64,000 bases of DNA. Source: an uncultured virus (IMG/VR IMGVR_UViG_2788500061_000001). Lineage: Duplodnaviria > Heunggongvirae > Uroviricota > Caudoviricetes. The stretch lies in IMG/VR virus record IMGVR_UViG_2788500061_000001; one strand, given 5' to 3'. The notes beneath the pieces were generated by a model. The model searched no databases, was not told the origin of the DNA, and saw nothing but the letters and a program-made list of their open reading frames with translations. Within the stretch, counting starts at the first letter, position 1. Every line of letters begins with the position of its first letter. Below are positions 12,686 to 47,989 of this stretch, in pieces. The position numbers and the translations under genes were made by a program.

Positions 12686-13519
12686 TTATCTCGTATGCGC
12701 GAAATCCGGGAAAAGATCCTGCTGGCCGAGGGCCTTCTGGCAGGCCGGGTTCAGCCACAGGCATTCGATTCTCTCATTCCGCTTGTTGTCCCTGGTTCGC
12801 TTCTCGACTCGCTTCCATCCCGCTCGCTCAAAAGTGATCTCGTAGAGCTTCGATGGATAGCCGCAGAGGACGATCATGGAGAGGCTTTTTCGGAGCCTGA
12901 GAAATAGAATGAAGTGCTCCCAGATGCTCATCATTTCATGCTGGTAGGCTCGCCCGGCTTTGCGGCAGATTCCGAGATAGGGTGGGTCGACGAAAAAGAG
13001 AGTCTCAGGGCTGGAGCACTCCTTGAGGAGCTTGCCATAGTCCTTGCTCTCGATTACCACTCCCCGAAATCGCATTGCAGCCCGGTACAAGGGCCGAAGG
13101 TCTGCAAACATGGAGGCCGGTCGGTAACCACCGCTGGAGAAGACATTTCCATAGGACCGGAAGGAGCCNCCNGCCCGGTTNTTGCTCATGTTCATCCAGC
13201 ANCGGGNATAGAATCGACGGGCNGTTTCCAGTTCGGATTCCGTCGAAGTCCGGGTTATCTCGAATTCGTCCCGGGAGTAAGCGGTGAATCGGATAGAGCG
13301 GATCAGCTCCCGGGGTCGATCCCGGAGCACTCGAAAGAAAGTGCAGAGCTCTCCGTCCACGTCGTTGTAGTATTCAAATCGGGCGCGGTCCTTTCGCAGC
13401 AGCACGGATCCGCCTCCGCCAAAAAGGTCAACATACACCTTGTGCGCCGGGAAGTGCTCGAGGATCCAATCCGTTAGTAGCCATTTTGAGCCGTTGTATT
13501 TCAGAACGGGTCTTTCCAT
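12686..13519 (-). CDS. Dam-family (D12) N6-adenine DNA methyltransferase
   Basis: LKYNGSKW, VDLFGGGGSV, FFVDPPY. Confidence 0.92.
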   Translation of the reverse strand: MERPVLKYNGSKWLLTDWILEHFPAHKVYVDLFGGGGSVLLRKDRARFEYYNDVDGELCTFFRVLRDRPRELIRSIRFTAYSRDEFEITRTSTESELEXARRFYXXCWMNMSXNRXXGSFRSYGNVFSSGGYRPASMFADLRPLYRAAMRFRGVVIESKDYGKLLKECSSPETLFFVDPPYLGICRKAGRAYQHEMMSIWEHFILFLRLRKSLSMIVLCGYPSKLYEITFERAGWKRVEKRTRDNKRNERIECLWLNPACQKALGQQDLFPDFAHTR

Positions 13520-33461: not shown

Positions 33462-34329
33462 ATGGAATTTACCCATCCCTGNCATATTATCAAAGCCGAA
33501 GAGAATTCCGGACGGCTNAAAGTTCTGATTCGAGCCTCCACTGAAGGAGAAGACCGGCACGGCGAGCGTGTCCTAAAGAGCGCGTTTGCAGACCCGGANA
33601 TGCAACGGTCNTTTTCCAGGGAAGGCTACTACGACTANAACCACATAACAGATATTCTGGACAAACAGATGAAAGGTGTCTCCGGCACCGAACTTGTGGA
33701 NCTGCAGAAGGCCAAAGCAAGNGCNATCATTGGATATCCNGATCCCGACAAGTCGTTGTTNGTCGGGGATGATGGCGTNTATTCNCAGGGGTATCTATTC
33801 GCAGANAATGAATACGTCCAGGAAATCCGCAAGGGTCTTGAATCCGGCTGGTCNGGCTGGGGNGCTTCGATCTCNGGTTTTGCGAGCCCNNNGGACCTGG
33901 AAGGCAACACTTTCAAGAAGATTGNTCCTGAANAAGATCGCAATCGCCCCGCTCCAGGAAGTCATCAATCCGGATACAAGNGTTCAACTGGCCAAGTCNA
34001 ANCTCNTTCAGNTGATNAAGGCCGGTGAGGACTACTACACCGAAGAGCAGACGGGCGCAACCGACACCTTGCCCGATACAGAAATCCGTGACCAGATAAT
34101 TCAGGATCTACAGATGCAGGTCGGTCGGCTCACGCGATTGGTCCTTTCGCAACCTTCCATGCAGGAAGCTATCGCTCGTGAAGTGGTGGATGCGATCAAA
34201 TGCGGCACCCTGCCCCTGCAACACGATCCCATAGTCAGCTTTTTGACCGATAGCTTTGGCTTTGATACGGATTTAGCCAAGCAAGTCGCCAACGGCGTAC
34301 TGCTAACAGGTAACTTCGGAGCGGCATAG
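33462..34329 (+). CDS. Prohead protease (apparent frameshift near 33925 in N-rich sequence)
   Basis: ASTEGEDRHGERV...YDxNH...ASIxG, then KIAIAPLQEVINPDT in the adjacent frame; precedes scaffold and capsid. Confidence 0.75.
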
Positions 34330-34365
34330 CTCCTGAGAGTCCAGAGAAGAGGAGACACTGAACTT

Positions 34366-35052
34366 ATGAAATGGGCAGAAGAATTAATTGGAAAGATTCA
34401 ATCTTTAAGCGTTCGCAAAGCGGACGATCCGACCTCCGGCGATAAAGGCGGCGGATCCATCGAGGATCTGGCAATGGAGGCCGCGAACAAAATGGAGAAC
34501 GGCGAAATTGAACCGGATGCAGATTCCGCTAAGGACTTCCTGGTATCTAACGGTGTCGACGAATCTGAGGCCGGAGATTTTGCCAGAGATATCATAGATG
34601 CCTATTTCTCCGAGGATGATCCAAAATCCGGAGAAGGCGACGGGTCCGGGGACAAAGGAGACGTCAACAAGTCAAAGGATCCGACCCAGGATGAAGCCAA
34701 TTCGGACCAGATCCCCATTCAGAAGTCCATGGAGCGAATCGAAGAGGCCCTGAGTGTTCTCGGTTATGGCCTTACTCATATCCTGGACGAGCTGCAGGCA
34801 ACCCGCAAGGAGAATGCTGTCCTGAAAAGCCAGGTGGATGAATACCTCGGCAAGCCAGTTCGCAAGAGTACGGTTGAGCAAGTGGCCCCCGGTGCTGGCC
34901 AGGAGAGCGGCAGATCCACCTCCGAAACAAAGACCCTGATTCTGAAAGGAGTCCAGGCCGGTGAGCTTACCACTGAAGACATGACTGCCTTCGAAGTGGG
35001 TCGAGTGCTCACCGACAAAGCAAAGCATTACATCAATAAGGCAGGAGCCTGA
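34366..35052 (+). CDS. Scaffold protein
   Basis: Acidic/coiled-coil; between protease and capsid; multiple xKS/xKA sites. Confidence 0.7.
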   Translation: MKWAEELIGKIQSLSVRKADDPTSGDKGGGSIEDLAMEAANKMENGEIEPDADSAKDFLVSNGVDESEAGDFARDIIDAYFSEDDPKSGEGDGSGDKGDVNKSKDPTQDEANSDQIPIQKSMERIEEALSVLGYGLTHILDELQATRKENAVLKSQVDEYLGKPVRKSTVEQVAPGAGQESGRSTSETKTLILKGVQAGELTTEDMTAFEVGRVLTDKAKHYINKAGA

Positions 35053-35084
35053 TCCCTGAAAGCGCGACAACAGAGAGGATAGAA

Positions 35085-36506
35085 ATGAGAGAACTTAACG
35101 AACTACTGGAGATTAAGAAGGCCTTTGAGGCCAATCCGGGGATTACTGATGTGGCCGAGCTCTTTGACGGCCCGGCGCTCAGTATGCAATACATCGATGG
35201 AACCATGTCTTCCATCGTTGCAAGCGATGTTGACTTCGCTTTCCTGAATAAGCTGCCGAAACGATCGGTGGACCAGACCATTGCCGAATACAACAAAATG
35301 AAGAGCCACGGAGACTCTCCGTATCGCACTTCTTTCGTTGGGCAATCAGAGGATCCCCACTTCGCTGACGCATACCTGAAAAGAAAGTTCGATGAAATGG
35401 CGTACCTTTCTGAAGGGTTCACATATAACCGCGTAATTGCCCGAACCAGGAACACAAACGACCCGGAAATGGTATCGTCCACGTCCGCCATGCGCCGGAT
35501 GCTCACTTCCCTGTCCCGGGGCCTCTGGAATGGTGACCGTGACGCTCTATCCGTTGAAATGGACGGAATCGTTAAGAAGGTCTCTTCACTGGGCTCGGAC
35601 TTCGTTTACGATTGTCGTGGCCAGCTACCCGGTGCCGACGTAATCCAGCATTTTGCAGCTCAGATCCGAAGTAGATATTTCGGACTGGCCAACGAATTCC
35701 ACATGGCCGTCGGTTCCAAGAACCTGTTTGATCAGGCAGACCTCGGTGATAAGCAGTATATTTTCCTGGATGGCCAGAATGCCGGTGCAGGTCTGTATGC
35801 CAGCCGAGTTGTGGAGGGCCAGAAGGCTTCCTTCGCACTGAACAACAAGATTCAGTATGTACCGGATCTGTGGATCGATGAAAGCAATTTCGGCGTTCCA
35901 ATGGACTATGACCGGTCCACCGACTCCGTGGTCGAAAAGGCCGTAGGTGAAGCTCCTCCGGATACCCCTGCTCTGGCGGTCGCTGCTCAGGCTCCGTCCG
36001 TACCCGGCTCCAAATGGGAGGCTGGAGACGTTGGCACCGTAGCATACCGTGTGGCCGCTGTAGGCCCTAAAGGTGCTTCTCAGGCCACAACCTCACAATC
36101 CGCCACAGTAGCCGCAAATGGAGCCGTGGAACTGACCATCACTCCGGCTGCAGGAGGCAACTTCGCAGAGGCATTCCTGATCTTCCGTGAGACAGCTCCT
36201 GGCAACGGAGATTTCCGCAAGATTGCCCGTGTAAAGCGTGCAACCAGCGGTGACACTACCTTTGTGGACGTAAATGAGACAATCCCCGGAACCAGCGTCG
36301 GTGTCCTGGGCGACTTCAATAGCCGGTCCACTTCCGACGAAACCAGAACCATGGTTCTGAGTGAGCTTATGAGCCCGCTCAAAACCACATTCCCTCCGGG
36401 AGTTGGCGGCCTGCGACTGAACGTTGGCATGGTGGAGTATTTCACAACCATCCAACTCTTCGCCGAAGAGAAGTTCGTCGTATTCAAGAACATGCCAGTT
36501 ATCTAA
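35085..36506 (+). CDS. Major capsid protein
   Basis: 473 aa after protease/scaffold; IKKAF maturation-like site; followed by terminator. Confidence 0.85.
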   Translation: MRELNELLEIKKAFEANPGITDVAELFDGPALSMQYIDGTMSSIVASDVDFAFLNKLPKRSVDQTIAEYNKMKSHGDSPYRTSFVGQSEDPHFADAYLKRKFDEMAYLSEGFTYNRVIARTRNTNDPEMVSSTSAMRRMLTSLSRGLWNGDRDALSVEMDGIVKKVSSLGSDFVYDCRGQLPGADVIQHFAAQIRSRYFGLANEFHMAVGSKNLFDQADLGDKQYIFLDGQNAGAGLYASRVVEGQKASFALNNKIQYVPDLWIDESNFGVPMDYDRSTDSVVEKAVGEAPPDTPALAVAAQAPSVPGSKWEAGDVGTVAYRVAAVGPKGASQATTSQSATVAANGAVELTITPAAGGNFAEAFLIFRETAPGNGDFRKIARVKRATSGDTTFVDVNETIPGTSVGVLGDFNSRSTSDETRTMVLSELMSPLKTTFPPGVGGLRLNVGMVEYFTTIQLFAEEKFVVFKNMPVI

Positions 36507-38082: not shown

Positions 38083-41000
38083 ATGCGTCGGAAATTCCTG
38101 CAAGTGTTGAAAGAACGGATGGGGGCTGCCATGGCAGGCCCCCGCTCCAGAGCGCACCTCATTCGCAAGGTCATCACAAACCGGCGGGGCCACAAGCAAA
38201 CAGTATACGTCAGGCCAGACAAGGCCGGAAGCCCACCTTCTGCCCCTCAAAAACCATCACAGTCTTCATCCTCTGTCGCGGAGGCTCGAAAGGAGTTTCA
38301 AAGAGCCGATGCCGAATTCAGTGCAGCGCTGGAAGAGGCCTATGGCAAGCAAGCGGGAGACAAGCGGTATTCTCCTGGTCCCCATCCACCTGCAGTAGAG
38401 GCTGCAAAGAAGAAACGGATGGAGGCCCAGAAGAAGTGGCATGCGGCACAAGACCAGACTCGGGCTTCAGGAAAGGATCCTCTATCCGGGGCACCTGTTG
38501 AATCCGAGCAGTCAGAAGCCTCAAACAAAGAGAAGCCGGAGCCGAGTGATGGGGAGGACAAGACAGCATCCGATTCCCCGGCAACCGCCCTCTCCTTCGT
38601 TGGTCATGATCAGATCCGGGAGCTGTCTCAGTACACAGACAAGCGCAACTACGATAGAAAGACTATCGATGGCATCAAGGCCAGCATCTTGCGGAATGGT
38701 TACAATCCGGCCTTCCCTCTCCAGGTCGATACAGACAACGGAACCTACAATATCGTTTCGGGGCACCACCGATTCACAGCGGTAAAGGAACTGGTCAGCG
38801 AAGGGAAACTACCGGACAACTTTCAGATTCCCGTCATCGTAAAGCAGTATGGAAGCAAAGGCGACCGACTTATGGCGCAAATGTCGGAGAATGTTCGCCG
38901 CACTGTCAACCCATTGGACGAGGCCCGGGCCATCGGAGAGTTAACCGAGATGGGCCACAGTGTTTCAGAAATCGCAGAAAAGACCGGAATGAATCCGGGA
39001 ACTGTCCGGCGACGCAAAGCATTGACCGGGCTGCACAGTGACCTTCAAAAGCTGTTCTAGAAAAAGGACCGAAGTCTGCCCGTAGGTATCGCGGAAGCGA
39101 TCGGAACTCATGGCCTGAATCCAGACGGGTCTAAAAACGCAACCATCCAGAACAAGGCCCACCGATTCTACAATGCCAACCGACATCGTGGATTCGGAGC
39201 TGCTGAAGTGATTAGCTACATGCAGGAGCTCAAGTCGCAGAACTCCGATCAAATGTGGTCCGTAGATGAAACCCGTACGGAAGCCGAGAAGCAAGCCGTC
39301 CAGAGCCTCGGTTCAGAAGAAAAGGCAAAGCGGAACACAGCGCAAATAGACAAATTCCTGGGTAGCGTACAGAATTCGTTTCAGCGCCTTCTCGGGGACT
39401 CTATTAGCTCTCTAAACGAATCTACTCTCAAAGAACTCTCTAACAGCCTCCTGGCCACGGAAGGCGAGTCCGGGTTTCGCTCAAAAATGGATCAGCTATC
39501 GACACTGATGAACGACCTGGAGACAGTCAAGCGTACTCTCGAGCAGAATTTCAATAAGATCAAAGAGGAATCATCGAACCATAGTCTCGCATTCGCCCGA
39601 TCAATGGCAGTGATTGAAGCCAGCCAGGACGCCATTCATGTTCTAAAGTCGGCCCATAGAGAGACACGGGTAATCGAAAAAAGCAGATTTCTGGAAGTCC
39701 TCAAGGCCAAAGGCAAATCGGCGAGGAATCGGGCTCACCTCGTGCGCAAGGTAATAACCAACAAGAAGGGGCACAAACAGACAGTTTACGTGAACCCCAA
39801 TGAAACCAACCAGGCTCAGGCGGAACAAATCGGGGAGTTCACTCTGAAACGCAGAGGGAAATTCATCGATGTCCTCGGGAATCTGTTCAAAGAATCCGGC
39901 CTGTACATGGCCTTGAATTCTCTAACCGGCAAGAAGGGGAAGCCTATCGAAGGAGAAAACGATCAGGGTAGCATTGGTGCTACTTACCCTTACTCAGTCG
40001 CCAACTATAAAAAGATCCGGGAGCAGTTGCTGGGAGTTTCCCGGGGGCCTGCCGACAACCGAGAGCAGGATTTGAGCCCTGCGGATGTCAGGAATATACC
40101 GGATGAGATAGAGTCGGAAGTCAAGGGAGATAAGGCACGATCCCTCTGGAAGCGAGCGTCCGAGCGATTCCCGAACCTGGATGCCGGAACTTTTGTGGAT
40201 CATCTGGTTGAGTATTTGCTCCACCGTGACAAATACGAAGACCTTTTTTCGCAACAGAGCCTCTTCCAGGAGCCATCGGAAACTCCGGCGAACTCTGCAA
40301 AGGACTCGGGCTCGAAAGGAACGGTTAGCACTCCGAACCCAGCACCGTTCCGGAAAGACTTGCTTCGCTTCATCCATGAGCAATGGTCCGAATCGATCCA
40401 GAGCGATCCTCGTTCAATAGAGAAGGCTGAAGAAAGGTATAATGCAGCAGAACGAGACCTTGAAGAGTCCGCCCGGGAAGCCTACGGGAATCGTTCCAGC
40501 GACATGCTGGAATACGCAAACTCCAGGGTGCATCCTCCAGAAGTTCAGGAAGACCTGGATCAACGCAACGAAGCTCGGGTTTCTCTCCTGGAAACAAGGA
40601 AGGAGTCTCAGATTCGAGAATCCCGCATAAGGGCAAGCGTCGAAACAGGTAAAGCACGGGTCGGCGTTAAGACTCAGCATGCAATCAATGAAGAGGTCCG
40701 ACAGATCCTGAAATCTGTGCCATCGGAAAAGATGACCGAGGAGCAGAAGGAACTCCTTCGTCAGTACGAAGGCTGGGGCGGGCAGACCCGAAATGATAAA
40801 ACGGATTACTCCGGCAAGGGACTTCTTTATGAGTTCTATACTCCTGAGAAGGTCGTAAACAAGTCCTGGGAGCTATTGGAGAGATATATCCCCAAAGGGA
40901 GCAAGATTCTCGAACCCGCTGCCGGGACCGGACGATTCGCGGAGGGACGATCAGACTACAGTTTCGACATGCTGGAGGTAGACGGCACATCAAGCCAGAT

Positions 41001-44000: not shown

Positions 44001-44859
44001 GGTCATGTATAACTGCAGCCTGGCATGGAATCCGACATCGAACGAACAAAAAAAGGGCCGTGGATGGCGCCAGGGGAACACCCAGGAGCGTTGCCACATG
44101 TTTTACCCGGTCATGGAGAACTCCGTCGACACAAAACTGTACCAGAAGCATGCCGAAAAGGTTTCCCGAATCAACGATATCTTTAAGGCAACTGGATCCC
44201 CTTTCATCGAAACCACGGACATCAATCCTGATGAGCTGAAATACGAGATCGTGACCGACCCGGAGAAAAAGGCCAGGCTGGTTGCATCGGAAGATGAGAC
44301 GCAGCGTCTGGCCGCCATCAAGGATAAGACCACCGACCGGAACATTCTCCTATCAACCCTGAATCGAGCAGAAAATCTGGACCGACGCATTAGGGATGCG
44401 GAAGAGTCACTGAAGCGGTCACAGCGCTGGGCCGAAATGTACGGCAAGAACTCAACACTTGGTCGATTCCATGCGGAGGATGTAAACCGCATCAAATCAA
44501 GACTCAGTCGATTGAAGCGCGACAAAGAAGAGCATGAGACAATGATGCAGCAGAAGGGCATGACCGTGGAGAAGCTCCGTTCTCAGGCGGAGGCTCTGGA
44601 AAACGAGATCGCTCAAATGAAAGCAGATTCAACCAAAAAGAAGGAAGAGCTTGAATCAGAACTGGTAGAGCGCTACCGACGAGAAAAGGAAGAATATGAG
44701 AAGAGCCGTCCCAACAAGTCGATCGACCAGATGGTGGATGAGCATGTCTCAAAGCTGGTTGACTCTTCCCTCGGCAAGTCGGTATATAAGAGTCGAATCT
44801 ACGAAATAATACGGGGAGGGAGAATGCATGAACGCAGACGTAAAGCAGCAGCTCTTTGA
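38083..44859 (+). CDS. darB: DarB-like polyvalent protein: tag, ParB-N/HTH, N6-adenine MTase and SNF2 helicase; one in-frame TAG at 39058-39060
   Basis: IVSGHHRF/SENVRR (ParB); EFYTP, LEPAAGTG, NPPY (MTase); HEVGLGKT, VDEAH, LTATP, QKKGRGWRQGN (SF2). ORFs 38083 and 39208 share one frame and the gap between them is open. Confidence 0.85.
38149..38217 (+). repeat. Cargo-tag motif copy 1
   Basis: Encodes RAHLIRKVITNRRGHKQTVYVRP. Confidence 0.9.
39730..39798 (+). repeat. Cargo-tag motif copy 2
   Basis: Encodes RAHLVRKVITNKKGHKQTVYVNP. Confidence 0.9.
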
Positions 44860-45034
44860 AGCCGTGGAGGCAGACTTCCCGCACCTGGCAAGTCTGGGGC
44901 CGGACAGGGTCTACGATTCCCTATCCTCAATTTGTATGCAGGAGGGGAAGCCAGTAACGGTTGAACAAATGCTCCAATACGCGGTGATTCTGGACAACGA
45001 CCTGGAGATGGACGATCTACAGACCGGCGACTGA
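44828..45034 (+). CDS. Small acidic protein
   Basis: 68 aa; GGAGG SD inside the darB 3' end. Confidence 0.65.
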   Translation: MNADVKQQLFEAVEADFPHLASLGPDRVYDSLSSICMQEGKPVTVEQMLQYAVILDNDLEMDDLQTGD

Positions 45035-45046
45035 ATCGACAGATGC

Positions 45047-45071
45047 CCGATAGCCGTTTTCCGGCTATAAC
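45047..45071 (+). promoter_or_regulatory. Putative late promoter (zeta)
   Basis: CCGAT-N14-TATAAC-N6-ATG(45078). Confidence 0.7.
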
Positions 45072-45077
45072 GGGTCC

Positions 45078-46496
45078 ATGAATGGCATTCATATTCTCAA
45101 GGCGGCCAACAGAGCGCATCTGGTCCGCAAAGTCATTACGAATAAGAAAGGCCGCCGCCAGACCGTTTACGTAAACCCGGAACAGGAAAAGTCGAAAGAA
45201 AAAGGTCGAGGCCAGTCTGGTAAGGCATCCGAAAAAAAGGCCGAGGACAAGGAAGCCGGATCCTCCCGCCCCGACCAGTCCGCCCATAACAAAGAATCTC
45301 AACCGAGGAACAACGCGCCCGAGAAGAGCGGACAGAAAAAAGAGGGCACCGGGAAGAAACCGAAAGAACGTAAGTACAAAGACCCAGGGGTTAATCAGAT
45401 TTGGGCTCCTGCCGATGTTGAGGCAGCCAAGGCCCAAGCATTCTACAACATTGTAACCGACCCAGACATCGGTGATCCGATACCTCGCCCGGGTCGCTGG
45501 AATGAGGGGATTCCCGAGGGGATGCCCTCCGAAACCTGGGAAGAGCACTTCACCGGCCATCCAGATGAAGGCGGAAAGCCAAAGGAGGGCCGGGAGTTTC
45601 TCCACAACTTGATCAAACAGAGATTCCTCGAAGGGAAACCATCGGTGCCGTCCGGCGAAAAACCCGTTGCCATATTGATGATGGGCGGCCCGGCATCCGG
45701 GAAGTCGACCATGGTTAAGTCCGCTGGCCTGGAGAGTATGGAGGATTTCGTCGTCGCTGATGCTGATATAGTGAAGAACATGATTCCGGAATATCGAGTC
45801 GGGGTCAACAATCGCCTGAAACAGGCCGCATATATGGCACATGAGGAGTCCAGCTATCTGGTGAAGCAGATCAGAGAAGAAGCCATCAATACCCGGAAGA
45901 ACCTGGTTATCGATGGGACAGGTTCAAAGACAGCATCCTACGAAAAGAACATCCAGAAGCTCCGGGACCAGGGATACGAAATCAAGCTTATGATGGCTGA
46001 CACCCCGATGGATGTTGCTCTGAATCGCGCCAAACAGCGAGCGAGAAAAACCGGCCGCTACGTCCCAGACGGTGTTCTGAAAGGTGCTTATGCCGGTATC
46101 CCGAGCGGGTTCCAGAAGATCGCAGAGATGGTTGATTCTGCAGCCATCTATGATACAAACGTGAAGCTGGGAGAGCCTTCACGGCTTGTCTATACAAAGA
46201 CGAATGCCGCTGAAACCATCCATGACTCCGAGCATTATTCGAAGTTCCAGAGTAGGATCGGAAAGTCCTGGCTGTTTCAGATCATCAAGTCCAGACTCTC
46301 CCGTGAACAACGAATTGCTGTAACGAAAGGAGGAGAAGATATGCAGGAGAAGAAGCAAAAGCGAACCGATGACGAGCTACTACAGGCAATGGCCCGCGAC
46401 GAATGGGACTTCACCGAAGAAGAAATGAAACGAATTGAGGCCATGGAAGACGTGGCGGACGAAGGGGAAGGAGTGGAAATGGTAGTGGATGACTGA
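45078..46496 (+). CDS. Zeta-toxin family P-loop kinase with N-terminal cargo tag and acidic C-tail
   Basis: MGGPASGKST, VADADIVK, LVIDGT, RARKTGRYVP. Confidence 0.85.
   Translation: MNGIHILKAANRAHLVRKVITNKKGRRQTVYVNPEQEKSKEKGRGQSGKASEKKAEDKEAGSSRPDQSAHNKESQPRNNAPEKSGQKKEGTGKKPKERKYKDPGVNQIWAPADVEAAKAQAFYNIVTDPDIGDPIPRPGRWNEGIPEGMPSETWEEHFTGHPDEGGKPKEGREFLHNLIKQRFLEGKPSVPSGEKPVAILMMGGPASGKSTMVKSAGLESMEDFVVADADIVKNMIPEYRVGVNNRLKQAAYMAHEESSYLVKQIREEAINTRKNLVIDGTGSKTASYEKNIQKLRDQGYEIKLMMADTPMDVALNRAKQRARKTGRYVPDGVLKGAYAGIPSGFQKIAEMVDSAAIYDTNVKLGEPSRLVYTKTNAAETIHDSEHYSKFQSRIGKSWLFQIIKSRLSREQRIAVTKGGEDMQEKKQKRTDDELLQAMARDEWDFTEEEMKRIEAMEDVADEGEGVEMVVDD
45111..45179 (+). repeat. Cargo-tag motif copy 3
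   Basis: Encodes RAHLVRKVITNKKGRRQTVYVNP. Confidence 0.9.
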
Positions 46497-46546: not shown

Positions 46547-47989
46547 ATGTTTGGTCTTGAAAGCCTTATTGACATACTGAAAGCTCGCGGCGCAGCTCTT
46601 GGTGAGATCCACCATTGGGCCAATGGCGATTATATGAAAACTCCGCAGGGCTGGAAGGAAGTCAAGAAAGACGTCCGGAAGCATCTGGACAAGCTCACAA
46701 AACGTATGGCTCCCGCAGACGAGAAGGCCCGCGAACACCGCTTCGCCATGGAGGACCTTAAGTCCAGGATTGACGGGATCAAGAGCAAACTCAGCGAGCA
46801 CCCCGATTCAGATTACTACAAAAATGAGCTCAAAGAGGCGGAGAAGCGCCTGATATTCCATAGCGTAAAGGCCGAACAAGTTGGAGGACGTGCCCGACGC
46901 CGTGCCGAGGATTATTTGGATCAGGTCCGCCAGTATCTAAAGGACCATCACGAAACCCAAATAAACGCCAAATATGCTGACGCACTGAAGAAGCTCGATG
47001 AGCGGATGGCTGCACTTGAAGAAGGTGGGGACCGTTACAATCAAATAATGGAGAACCATCGAAAGCTGGTAGGCTCTGAATACGAGGATGAGGACGATGC
47101 TGAGTCAGCAGCAGAAGATGAGATAGAGATCGAAAAAGAGATTATCGAGGATAAGCAAACGGACCTGCACGACCTGATCTGGGAGAAAGTTGGGAACCGT
47201 CATGATCAGATCGATGAACGTTTAGACAAATTGCTGGAAGACAGTGAAGAGGATACCCGCGAAGCATTTGAAACTCGTCTCGATGACTTCGAGGACATCA
47301 AGACCCGCTACCCAACCAGCATAGACCGGGACCCAGTTACTCCGATAAGCAAGGTAAGGGAGAGAATCAGGAAGAACCTCGGTTTTCGCAAGCGGTTGGC
47401 CGACCGATTGAATCTGAAATCCAACCTGGGCCGGATGCTCGCAGTATTCAAAGCCGGAAACCGGCAGGGTCTTGTTAAGAAGGTCATCACAAATCAGGCT
47501 GGGCACCGGCAGACGGTCTGGATTCGGCCGGACGAAAGCCCCGGCCCTCGCCCCGTAAAAAAGGATAGTGGCCCATCCTCCAAAAAACCCGGTGCAGGCT
47601 CAGTAAAGCGCACAATGGCGCCCCAGCGCGGCGGAATGCCGTCCAAGAAGCCCATGGCCGCAAAACCCGCCGAAGATCATGCTGTTGTCCAGCAGCGGCA
47701 TGAGGATTTTGAAAAGCGCGCCCAGGAGCAGCGAAAACGAAAAGGACCTAATGCAAGCATTGATGCCGCCGAAGCTGGCGATATAGTGCAAATCACCAAC
47801 CCGAAATCGAGAGTCCGCAACCAAATAGGAAAAGTGGTTCAGAAACTGGAGGACGGATTGAAGGTCATGATGGCCAACGGGATTTTCCAGGATTTCACTT
47901 TCGATGAACTGTCCTTCGCGAAGTCCCGGCCGCTCGGGTTTCGACCGGATGGAGTTCAAATCCTGAAAGCCCGTATCGAGTTGAACTGA
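46547..47989 (+). CDS. Coiled-coil putative internal virion protein with cargo tag and C-terminal KOW/SH3-like domain
   Basis: ILKA...VFKA...FAKS...ILKA sites; GDIVQITN...IGKVVQK. Confidence 0.75.
   Translation: MFGLESLIDILKARGAALGEIHHWANGDYMKTPQGWKEVKKDVRKHLDKLTKRMAPADEKAREHRFAMEDLKSRIDGIKSKLSEHPDSDYYKNELKEAEKRLIFHSVKAEQVGGRARRRAEDYLDQVRQYLKDHHETQINAKYADALKKLDERMAALEEGGDRYNQIMENHRKLVGSEYEDEDDAESAAEDEIEIEKEIIEDKQTDLHDLIWEKVGNRHDQIDERLDKLLEDSEEDTREAFETRLDDFEDIKTRYPTSIDRDPVTPISKVRERIRKNLGFRKRLADRLNLKSNLGRMLAVFKAGNRQGLVKKVITNQAGHRQTVWIRPDESPGPRPVKKDSGPSSKKPGAGSVKRTMAPQRGGMPSKKPMAAKPAEDHAVVQQRHEDFEKRAQEQRKRKGPNASIDAAEAGDIVQITNPKSRVRNQIGKVVQKLEDGLKVMMANGIFQDFTFDELSFAKSRPLGFRPDGVQILKARIELN
47462..47530 (+). 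repeat. Cargo-tag motif copy 4
   Basis: Encodes RQGLVKKVITNQAGHRQTVWIRP. Confidence 0.85.

Follow-up and report, generated by a model that had tools for sequence, protein, structure and literature searches.

A zeta-like kinase of a spirochete phage head module carries a mobile partner peptide, a candidate inhibitor, as its acidic tail

Results

A tagged kinase precursor is encoded between the capsid and sheath genes

The window, that is, the whole stretch of 64,000 nucleotides analysed here, corresponds to bases 1-64,000 of a 75,035-bp contig (C1) within a 4.87-Mb assembly. A terminal overlap indicates that the contig is circular, and the element is a circular LE1-like phage-plasmid, or plasmid-prophage, of about 75 kb. 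Pfam and PHROG matches identify genes for terminase, portal, capsid, sheath and baseplate in the window, and the capsid protein is 32-41% identical to those of LE1-type leptophages. Near-identical proteins were found in MAGs labelled Leptospiraceae, Leptonemataceae or Spirochaetaceae; the host group of this temperate phage is marine spirochetes. The window contains 143 ambiguous bases, clustered between positions 13169 and 51949, with none in the region considered below, and the RNA contigs amount to eight short pieces at low depth. Outside the window, at about 68800-74700 of C1, lies a 1,048-aa ORF with neighbouring host-like genes; by eye, we take its product to resemble a heavy-metal efflux transporter.

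Between a DarB-like methylase/helicase gene and the sheath gene, and thus in the head module, lies an ORF for a protein of 472 residues. Among PHROGs it matches a family of minor head proteins best (E 1e-27), and from its position alone it would be a late gene. Its product starts with a leader, a hairpin tag and a basic, low-complexity linker, continues with a kinase domain, and ends with a short linker and a tail containing 19 acidic (D/E) and 7 basic (K/R) residues in 51 (Table 1). The identical protein is present on 159 contigs, and all members of its eight-member cluster are 472 residues long. The tag recurs in the ORFs at 38083, 39208 and 46547. An earlier note on this DNA had described the N-terminal ILKA and tag, the C-terminal IGKS and IIKS, and the highly acidic 51-aa peptide, and its coordinates and motifs are all correct; it overlooked a further motif, MVKS 212, inside the kinase just past Walker A. 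A relative with 51% identity (P0006) keeps the same spacing of IGKS and IIKS.

The note was also right that the gene start has no Shine-Dalgarno (SD) sequence (duplex energy -1.7, versus -11.6 at the internal ATG discussed below). A -10-like hexamer lies close to the ATG; the consensus scan gave it no promoter score. Its placement suggests a leaderless transcript of the full-length gene. The tagged cargo genes at 38083, 45078 and 46547 (and also 27944) have no SD; their ATG is preceded at a distance of 6-8 nt by a TAnnnT hexamer, which suggests leaderless late transcripts. Each end of the unannotated 480-aa protein encoded at 46547-47989 has an ILKA, and a copy of the hairpin tag lies internally, following VFKA; the protein is probably a two-part cargo.

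Table 1. Features of the kinase locus and the head module, in window coordinates
Feature	Position	Strand	Basis or remark
Putative prohead protease, scaffold and major capsid genes with the same K-S/A motif	33462..36506	+	motif content
68-aa acidic ORF, SD energy -12.1	44828..45034	+	SD within last codons of DarB-like gene
-10-like hexamer, 6 nt 5' of ATG	45066..45071	+	same TAnnnT placement at 38083 and 46547
472-aa precursor: leader, tag, basic linker, kinase, K-S linker, acidic tail	45078..46496	+	ORF
ILKA, putative prohead-protease site, residues 6-9	45093..45104	+	motif
Hairpin tag, residues 12-32, candidate head-targeting signal	45111..45173	+	4 copies in window and in C1
Zeta/AvrRxo1-superfamily P-loop kinase	45480..46253	+	K209, S210, D230, K233, R321; clade motif H255-x-E257-S258
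IGKS (394) and IIKS (402), putative C-terminal cleavage sites	46257..46292	+	spacing kept in P0006
Shine-Dalgarno AAGGAGG for internal start	46327..46333	+	kept in L001, L024, L071, L072
51-aa acidic tail, kinase-partner peptide family	46341..46496	+	profile matches

The kinase resembles AvrRxo1 as closely as zeta

Residues 182-359 match the Zeta_toxin family (PF06414; E 8.5e-33, 113.9 bits against a cut-off of 22.3). An AlphaFold model of residues 135-472 (mean pLDDT 88.6, pTM 0.80) finds its best fold match in AvrRxo1 (Z 20.0-20.6, rmsd 3.7-3.9, 275-278 residues aligned), followed by zeta (Z 19.5, rmsd 3.4, 234 aligned) and PezT (Z 17.6, rmsd 3.8, 228 aligned), with the next family at Z 12.3. 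Zeta catalysis has been ascribed to K46, T47, D67, K70 and R158 (PMC4938570), and the alignment retains all five positions, as K209, S210, D230, K233 and R321. The residues that contact UDP-GlcNAc in zeta, E100, T118, R120, T121 and T128 (PMC3062530), correspond here to K263, T281, S283, K284 and N291, of which only the first threonine position (T118) is identical, and the score against the PezT family is 28.8 bits at a cut-off of 470. AvrRxo1, described as an NAD 3'-kinase (PMC5491322, PMC5087710), aligns with a clade-invariant H-x-E-S motif (HxESS) and with an N-terminal helix containing PERxxLH; of its predicted substrate site (G227, R247, S249, R250, Y257), one residue in five is identical here (S249 = S283). 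Being as close to AvrRxo1 as to zeta and keeping one UDP-GlcNAc contact in five, the protein may act on a substrate of either kind or of another. The UDP-GlcNAc substrate implied by the earlier note is weakened by the same count of contacts, and the protein, by its sequence and model a probable small-molecule kinase of the zeta superfamily, is not to be classed among the UDP-GlcNAc kinases. The MuF domain (PF04233) is absent from it and is fused to 9 of its 103 homologues.

Linker motifs covary with the N-terminal motifs of the same protein

Motifs of the form [ILMVF]xK[SA] occur 9 times in the 416 residues of the putative protease and scaffold (2.16 per 100 aa), as compared to 34 times in 10,718 residues of non-head proteins (0.32 per 100 aa), a roughly 7-fold higher density in two proteins that were named from position and motif content, without a named family match. 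Two such motifs fall within the 29-aa linker between kinase and tail (P about 0.004). IKKA is found at residue 10 of the major capsid protein and FMKS at the matching place of the LE1 capsid, and the same pattern is seen in LE1 and in a prophage of a Leptospirales genome, G190. Capsid, scaffold, protease and cargo termini thus have the motif in common, an arrangement of the type known from T4 Alt and the T4 internal proteins. Capsid proteins of the LE1-like type are cut after the lysine of this motif; the literature searched yielded no usable paper on such cutting.

The linkers of fused relatives contain three classes of motif (hydrophobic-x-K-S/A/G, L/I/V-x-E and NP), and in 21 of 29 cases the class of the linker is that of the fused protein's own N-terminus, whereas permutation gives a mean of 9.3 and windows of the kinase would lead one to expect 6.1. 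This set consists of 35 rows minus three incomplete and three unclassed ones, two rows having been replaced by complete versions and three added; a first pass that included truncated starts gave 17 of 29 (permutation mean 9.0, p 0.0005). With one protein per tree cluster, about 12 of 16 agree (6.1 expected, 90th-percentile p 0.006), with the qualification that the classes were set after data inspection and that the NP class is a single clade. Any of the motif classes is present within the first 32 linker residues of 31 of 35 fused proteins, as opposed to 3 of 19 tail-less kinases, whose C-termini are shorter. As far as sequence comparison can speak, this covariation supports cutting by each phage's own head protease.

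Such C-terminal motifs also end the DarB-like protein, the product of the ORF at 46547 and the LE1-0015 cargo, none of which carries a fused peptide, and motifs alone therefore do not imply release of an inhibitor. The clipping in the head that the earlier note proposed thus gains from the covariation and loses from the occurrence of the motif at the end of unfused cargo. In addition, MVKS 212 would have to escape cutting, and the model places IGKS and IIKS in a predicted helix. The NP clade (L014, L041, L044, P0038, P0041, P0049, P0053, P0054) has R-x-NP both at the N-terminus and in the linker; the motif also occurs in ORFs neighbouring the L014 kinase, and the tail of the clade is shorter and has no profile match. 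R-x-NP is a possible third head-protease code.

The tail belongs to a peptide family that is encoded fused or free

Most of the 103 homologues end right after the kinase, and an acidic C-terminal tail is found in a minority. A profile built from 15 fused tails alone was compared with 7,483 six-frame segments from 58 loci. It matched 12 small ORFs directly 3' of tail-less kinases, ten at iE<0.01 and two at 0.06 and 0.24, and its sole off-target match stood at 0.97. Hence 12 of 23 tail-less kinases have an adjacent partner gene with its own SD, and what the earlier note had suggested looking for, the tail as a separate gene in homologues, was found. Seven of the partner genes are on the same strand as the kinase, some of them overlapping its stop codon, and five converge on it from the opposite strand with SD energies of -10 to -13. 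For the other 11 tail-less kinases, no profile-positive partner was detected; most have short downstream ORFs below significance. The tail and the free L003 peptide are 48% identical in an alignment of 46 aa (E 3e-11). In a quickly built tree of 62 kinase domains, with the fused and free labels assigned by eye, the two forms interleave, also inside the starred clade that holds the query, and the opposite-strand form needs two origins.

A profile search of 1.84 billion representatives returned 56 matches (47 short stand-alone proteins, seven kinase fusions and two repeat artefacts), which include the query members and for the rest of which no gene context is known. Two contigs, possibly at their edges, have the identical 51-aa peptide called by itself. 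A word-based search for tail-bearing proteins of greater length found none among 8,000 scored, two scans of viral contigs with degenerate motifs yielded 0 and 62 matches, one of the latter being an already known family member, and the ESM Atlas gave no usable match. None of 45 family members has a Pfam match at E<=0.01, and the family was not found in the open-access literature searched. The tail, we conclude from these comparisons, appears as a mobile partner module of the kinase clade, fused or separate, and represents a hitherto undescribed peptide family.

One of the 12 free genes (L033) reaches 9/12 of the sigma-70 consensus, 3 nt from its start. Small ORFs 3' of two further tail-less kinases (L019:4724 and L049:4810) have sigma-70 promoters at 12/12 and 10/12 and lie below family-profile significance. 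In HVTV-1, inside gene 115 (L090:4219-4338), a 39-aa out-of-frame acidic ORF sits just past the zeta domain (tail-profile E 0.052) and is possibly an overprinted partner.

An internal start may yield the free peptide

The positions given in the earlier note for AAGGAGG and the in-frame ATG that follows it by 7 nt were confirmed (duplex energy -11.6). Skipping the first 60 codons of each ORF, a spaced GGAGG core precedes 3 of 257 internal in-frame ATGs in the 35 ORFs of the window, and only that at 46341 also reaches -11 kcal/mol. The encoded M422 falls at the start position of the free family genes. The SD is kept in all five distinct close relatives. In these relatives, variation affects 92 of the 187 fourfold sites, and GGA is the sole codon at 6 of the 32 Gly sites; with half of the fourfold positions differing over such a distance, the retention of two Gly codons is little proof, and the conservation of the SD is not significant. 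P0006, a fusion with both motifs, has a Met right after IIKS and no room for a GG-rich SD. A sigma-70 consensus scan revealed no internal promoter before 46341. Free translation from this start, as put forward in the earlier note, is accordingly plausible, but the SD is indistinguishable from a relic of a recent fusion, and we give a working signal and a relic equal chances. If it works, the leaderless appearance of the full-length gene implies that the two products could be controlled separately.

The 68-aa ORF is confined to near-identical phages

The acidic ORF that the earlier note placed at 44828 is indeed there, and it is preceded by an SD. It bears no relation to the tail family (probability 0.2%) and has no Pfam, PHROG, NCBIfam or PADLOC match, and it was seen in near-identical phages only; searches with the DarB-like protein and with the 68-aa ORF each returned two near-identical loci. 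An upstream three-helix antitoxin of the epsilon/PezA kind was not found, neither this ORF nor the tail having a Pfam or NCBIfam match. The alternative antitoxin that the earlier note had seen in the 68-aa ORF is thus left without support. At the end of the DarB-like gene (window 44770-45034), LGKS and VYKS are found together with the embedded SD and the out-of-frame acidic ORF, which is the anatomy of the kinase end in unfused form. To judge by this arrangement, the 68-aa product may be a partner of the DarB-like protein.

In the model the tail may take the place of the relatives' C-terminal segment

Within the fused model (pTM 0.80), the pLDDT of the tail is 67-80, and it is 75 for the tail modelled alone (pTM 0.33), so that pLDDT does not discriminate; two-residue strands (R327-Y328 and V466-E467) are seen only in the fused model. 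Structural alignments to AvrRxo1, zeta and PezT reach into the tail (to model residues 322-334), and those that enter it stop at the C-termini of AvrRxo1 (419-421) and PezT (253), which implies that the tail may occupy the place of the relatives' own C-terminal segment. The tail family has no sequence similarity to the C-termini of AvrRxo1 and PezT at E<=10. A likeness of the tail to the PezT C-terminus was not reproduced by sequence comparison.

An orphan family gene is held as a CRISPR spacer

Among 401 Spirochaetota genomes, the family profile matched in the source genome and in G190 only. The LE1-like prophage of G190 encodes a 967-aa cargo ending in a kinase, followed by a free 63-aa family gene. 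The second G190 copy lies in a CRISPR array of type I-MYXAN, as a spacer of 402 nt (L157:9550-9951; G190:C2 about 1390549-1390950) set between exact 36-nt repeats next to spacers of 36 and 39 nt. It holds a TTGACA-17-CATAAT promoter, an SD and an intact 62-aa ORF, and no kinase. Over 282 nt, the spacer and prophage copies share 72% identity, so that the former came from a related phage. Among the 114 genomes of that family it is a single case, and the gene may have been captured by chance. The spacer further includes the beginning of the phage cargo gene that follows. At the array, cas1 is split into two ORFs, and the three short G190 spacers match none of the compared loci.

Discussion

How might a phage produce a toxic kinase and still deliver it in active form? 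We envision that the leader and tag very probably bring the precursor into the prohead, that the tail would probably bind the kinase and keep it silent in the producing cell, and that the prohead protease is then likely to cut at ILKA and at IGKS/IIKS, so that the kinase, freed of its tail, is ejected into the next cell. Taken jointly, loading, silencing and removal of an attached inhibitor during maturation have about an even chance of being correct. With similarly balanced odds, the internal SD and ATG would also yield free peptide, which might protect lysogens or quench the injected enzyme. In the next cell, the kinase would phosphorylate an essential nucleotide metabolite, for which an NAD-type molecule is a tentative candidate, a compound of another kind an equally tentative one and a UDP-sugar a somewhat unlikely one, and metabolism might thereby be reshaped or defence blunted at entry. 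The full scheme, a zymogen switch of a virion-delivered NAD or nucleotide-sugar kinase with the antidote in the precursor, removal by the head protease, a free form for lysogens, repeated fusion under differing codes and host capture as an expressed CRISPR cassette, is rather doubtful as a whole.

The tail is a good candidate for an inhibitor, and probably is one, on account of the toxin-then-small-gene order, the opposite-strand genes, the free peptides that carry no tag and the orphan spacer copy. The inhibitor role proposed in the earlier note thus finds backing in the gene arrangement and the CRISPR copy, while the model, which puts the tail at the relatives' C-terminal segment, speaks against it. 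Conceivably, the tail might instead be a structural or activating C-terminal piece of a split kinase that stays bound or is co-packaged, its cleavage merely easing ejection. The alignments that run on to the C-termini of AvrRxo1 and PezT would fit such an architecture, as would the slower killing described for PezT without its last 11 residues (PMC3062530), and the strict linkage of the peptide to kinases is compatible with it as well. We nevertheless consider it quite unlikely, because the tail family bears no similarity to those C-termini, free genes lack a visible leader or tag and five of them lie on the opposite strand, many homologues stop right after the kinase, and a kinase-free, promoter-bearing CRISPR copy is hard to square with an activator. 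Moreover, a single-chain model may lean toward solved relatives, and HipS, a split-off kinase piece, acts as an antitoxin, that is, it inhibits (PMC9325769). Another scenario accepts the peptide as an inhibitor and regards the fusion as an incidental loss of a stop codon or a frameshift, tolerated thanks to pre-existing protease sites, with no selection for arming and with an SD that either works or is a relic. Here the unfused DarB-like neighbour of the same anatomy, the interleaving of forms within the closest, starred clade and the insignificant conservation of the SD are all in favour; the enrichment of linker motifs in fused over tail-less kinases, the recurrence of fusion with three motif classes and the full length of all eight cluster members make it unlikely.

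Might the kinase not be packaged at all? On a circular plasmid-prophage, an ordinary intracellular toxin-antitoxin or maintenance module, its kinase controlled by free antitoxin from 46341, would not be out of place, zeta and PezT being classic maintenance toxins (PMC10532202). The gene lies between capsid and sheath, however, and has its leader and tag in common with three further genes that probably encode cargo; with the minor head protein family as best PHROG match and MuF fusions among the homologues, this possibility appears very unlikely. Still more remote, to the point of being exceedingly improbable, is an antitoxin role for the 68-aa ORF in the upstream position of epsilon: it is small and acidic, has an SD and lies directly upstream of the kinase gene, but it resembles neither the tail family nor any family in the databases searched, is found in near-identical phages only and is coupled to the end of the DarB-like gene.

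Several known systems offer parallels to a packaged kinase with an attached inhibitor. AvrRxo1:Arc1, in which the toxin gene is followed by a small antitoxin gene (PMC4938570), is similar in its best-matching fold, the five catalytic positions, the PERxxLH and HxESS motifs and the order of toxin and small partner, the latter being fused here and adjacent in 12 of 23 tail-less relatives. It differs in its delivery by type III secretion rather than in a phage head, in its separate partner and in four of five predicted substrate-site residues; Arc1-type partners are described as having 81-121 aa and a double-tyrosine motif (PMC4938570), whereas the tail family consensus lacks that motif and has no Arc1 match at E<=10. 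The epsilon/zeta and PezAT kinases, which act on UDP-GlcNAc (PMC3062530), have in common with the present protein PF06414, the fold and the positions K46, D67, K70, T118 and R158 of zeta; E100, R120, T121 and T128 are not kept, and there is no upstream epsilon. EzeT of Escherichia coli, which is chromosomal, likewise joins a toxin and a presumed inhibitor in one chain, as a cis-acting antitoxin at the N-terminus of zeta (PMC10532202). Here the candidate inhibitor is C-terminal, behind putative head-protease sites and equipped with an internal SD; in the available part of the EzeT source, neither protease release nor a second start is described (PMC10532202). In ng_epsilon1/ng_zeta1, a short extended antitoxin wraps the zeta kinase (PMC5923241), and in HipBST, a split-off kinase piece serves as antitoxin (PMC9325769); no sequence relation to either was found, and neither is phage cargo.

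Phage cargo provides the other half of the comparison. MuF polymorphic toxins are encoded ahead of a small cognate immunity gene (PMC12226406), and a zeta-like kinase fused to MuF has been reported in phages (PMC5512222). The locus resembles these systems in its temperate phage, its place in the head module with a head-associated toxin domain and the small downstream partner gene; it differs in that a short leader and tag take the place of MuF and that the peptide is fused and, from its motifs, apparently cleavable. T4 Alt and the T4 internal proteins have capsid targeting sequences and are cut by the prohead protease gp21, Alt, an injected enzyme, being trimmed at both ends (PMC9026906), and here, too, short motifs, as putative sites, lie at both termini. 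The motif is hydrophobic-x-K-S/A rather than the L/I-x-E of T4, and the portion of the Alt source that is available gives no inhibitor role for the C-terminal propeptide (PMC9026906). An antitoxin released by a prohead protease or during head maturation was not found in the open-access literature searched.

Zeta genes have also been noted in haloviruses without a known role (PMC4284463). The zeta-like kinases of phage and halovirus head modules, role-less so far (PMC5512222, PMC4284463), now gain a candidate inhibitor family. Tying the release of an inhibitor to head maturation is a candidate way of making a toxic enzyme safely and yet delivering it active, and a host that keeps a complete antidote gene among its CRISPR spacers would be protecting itself against phages in an unusual way.
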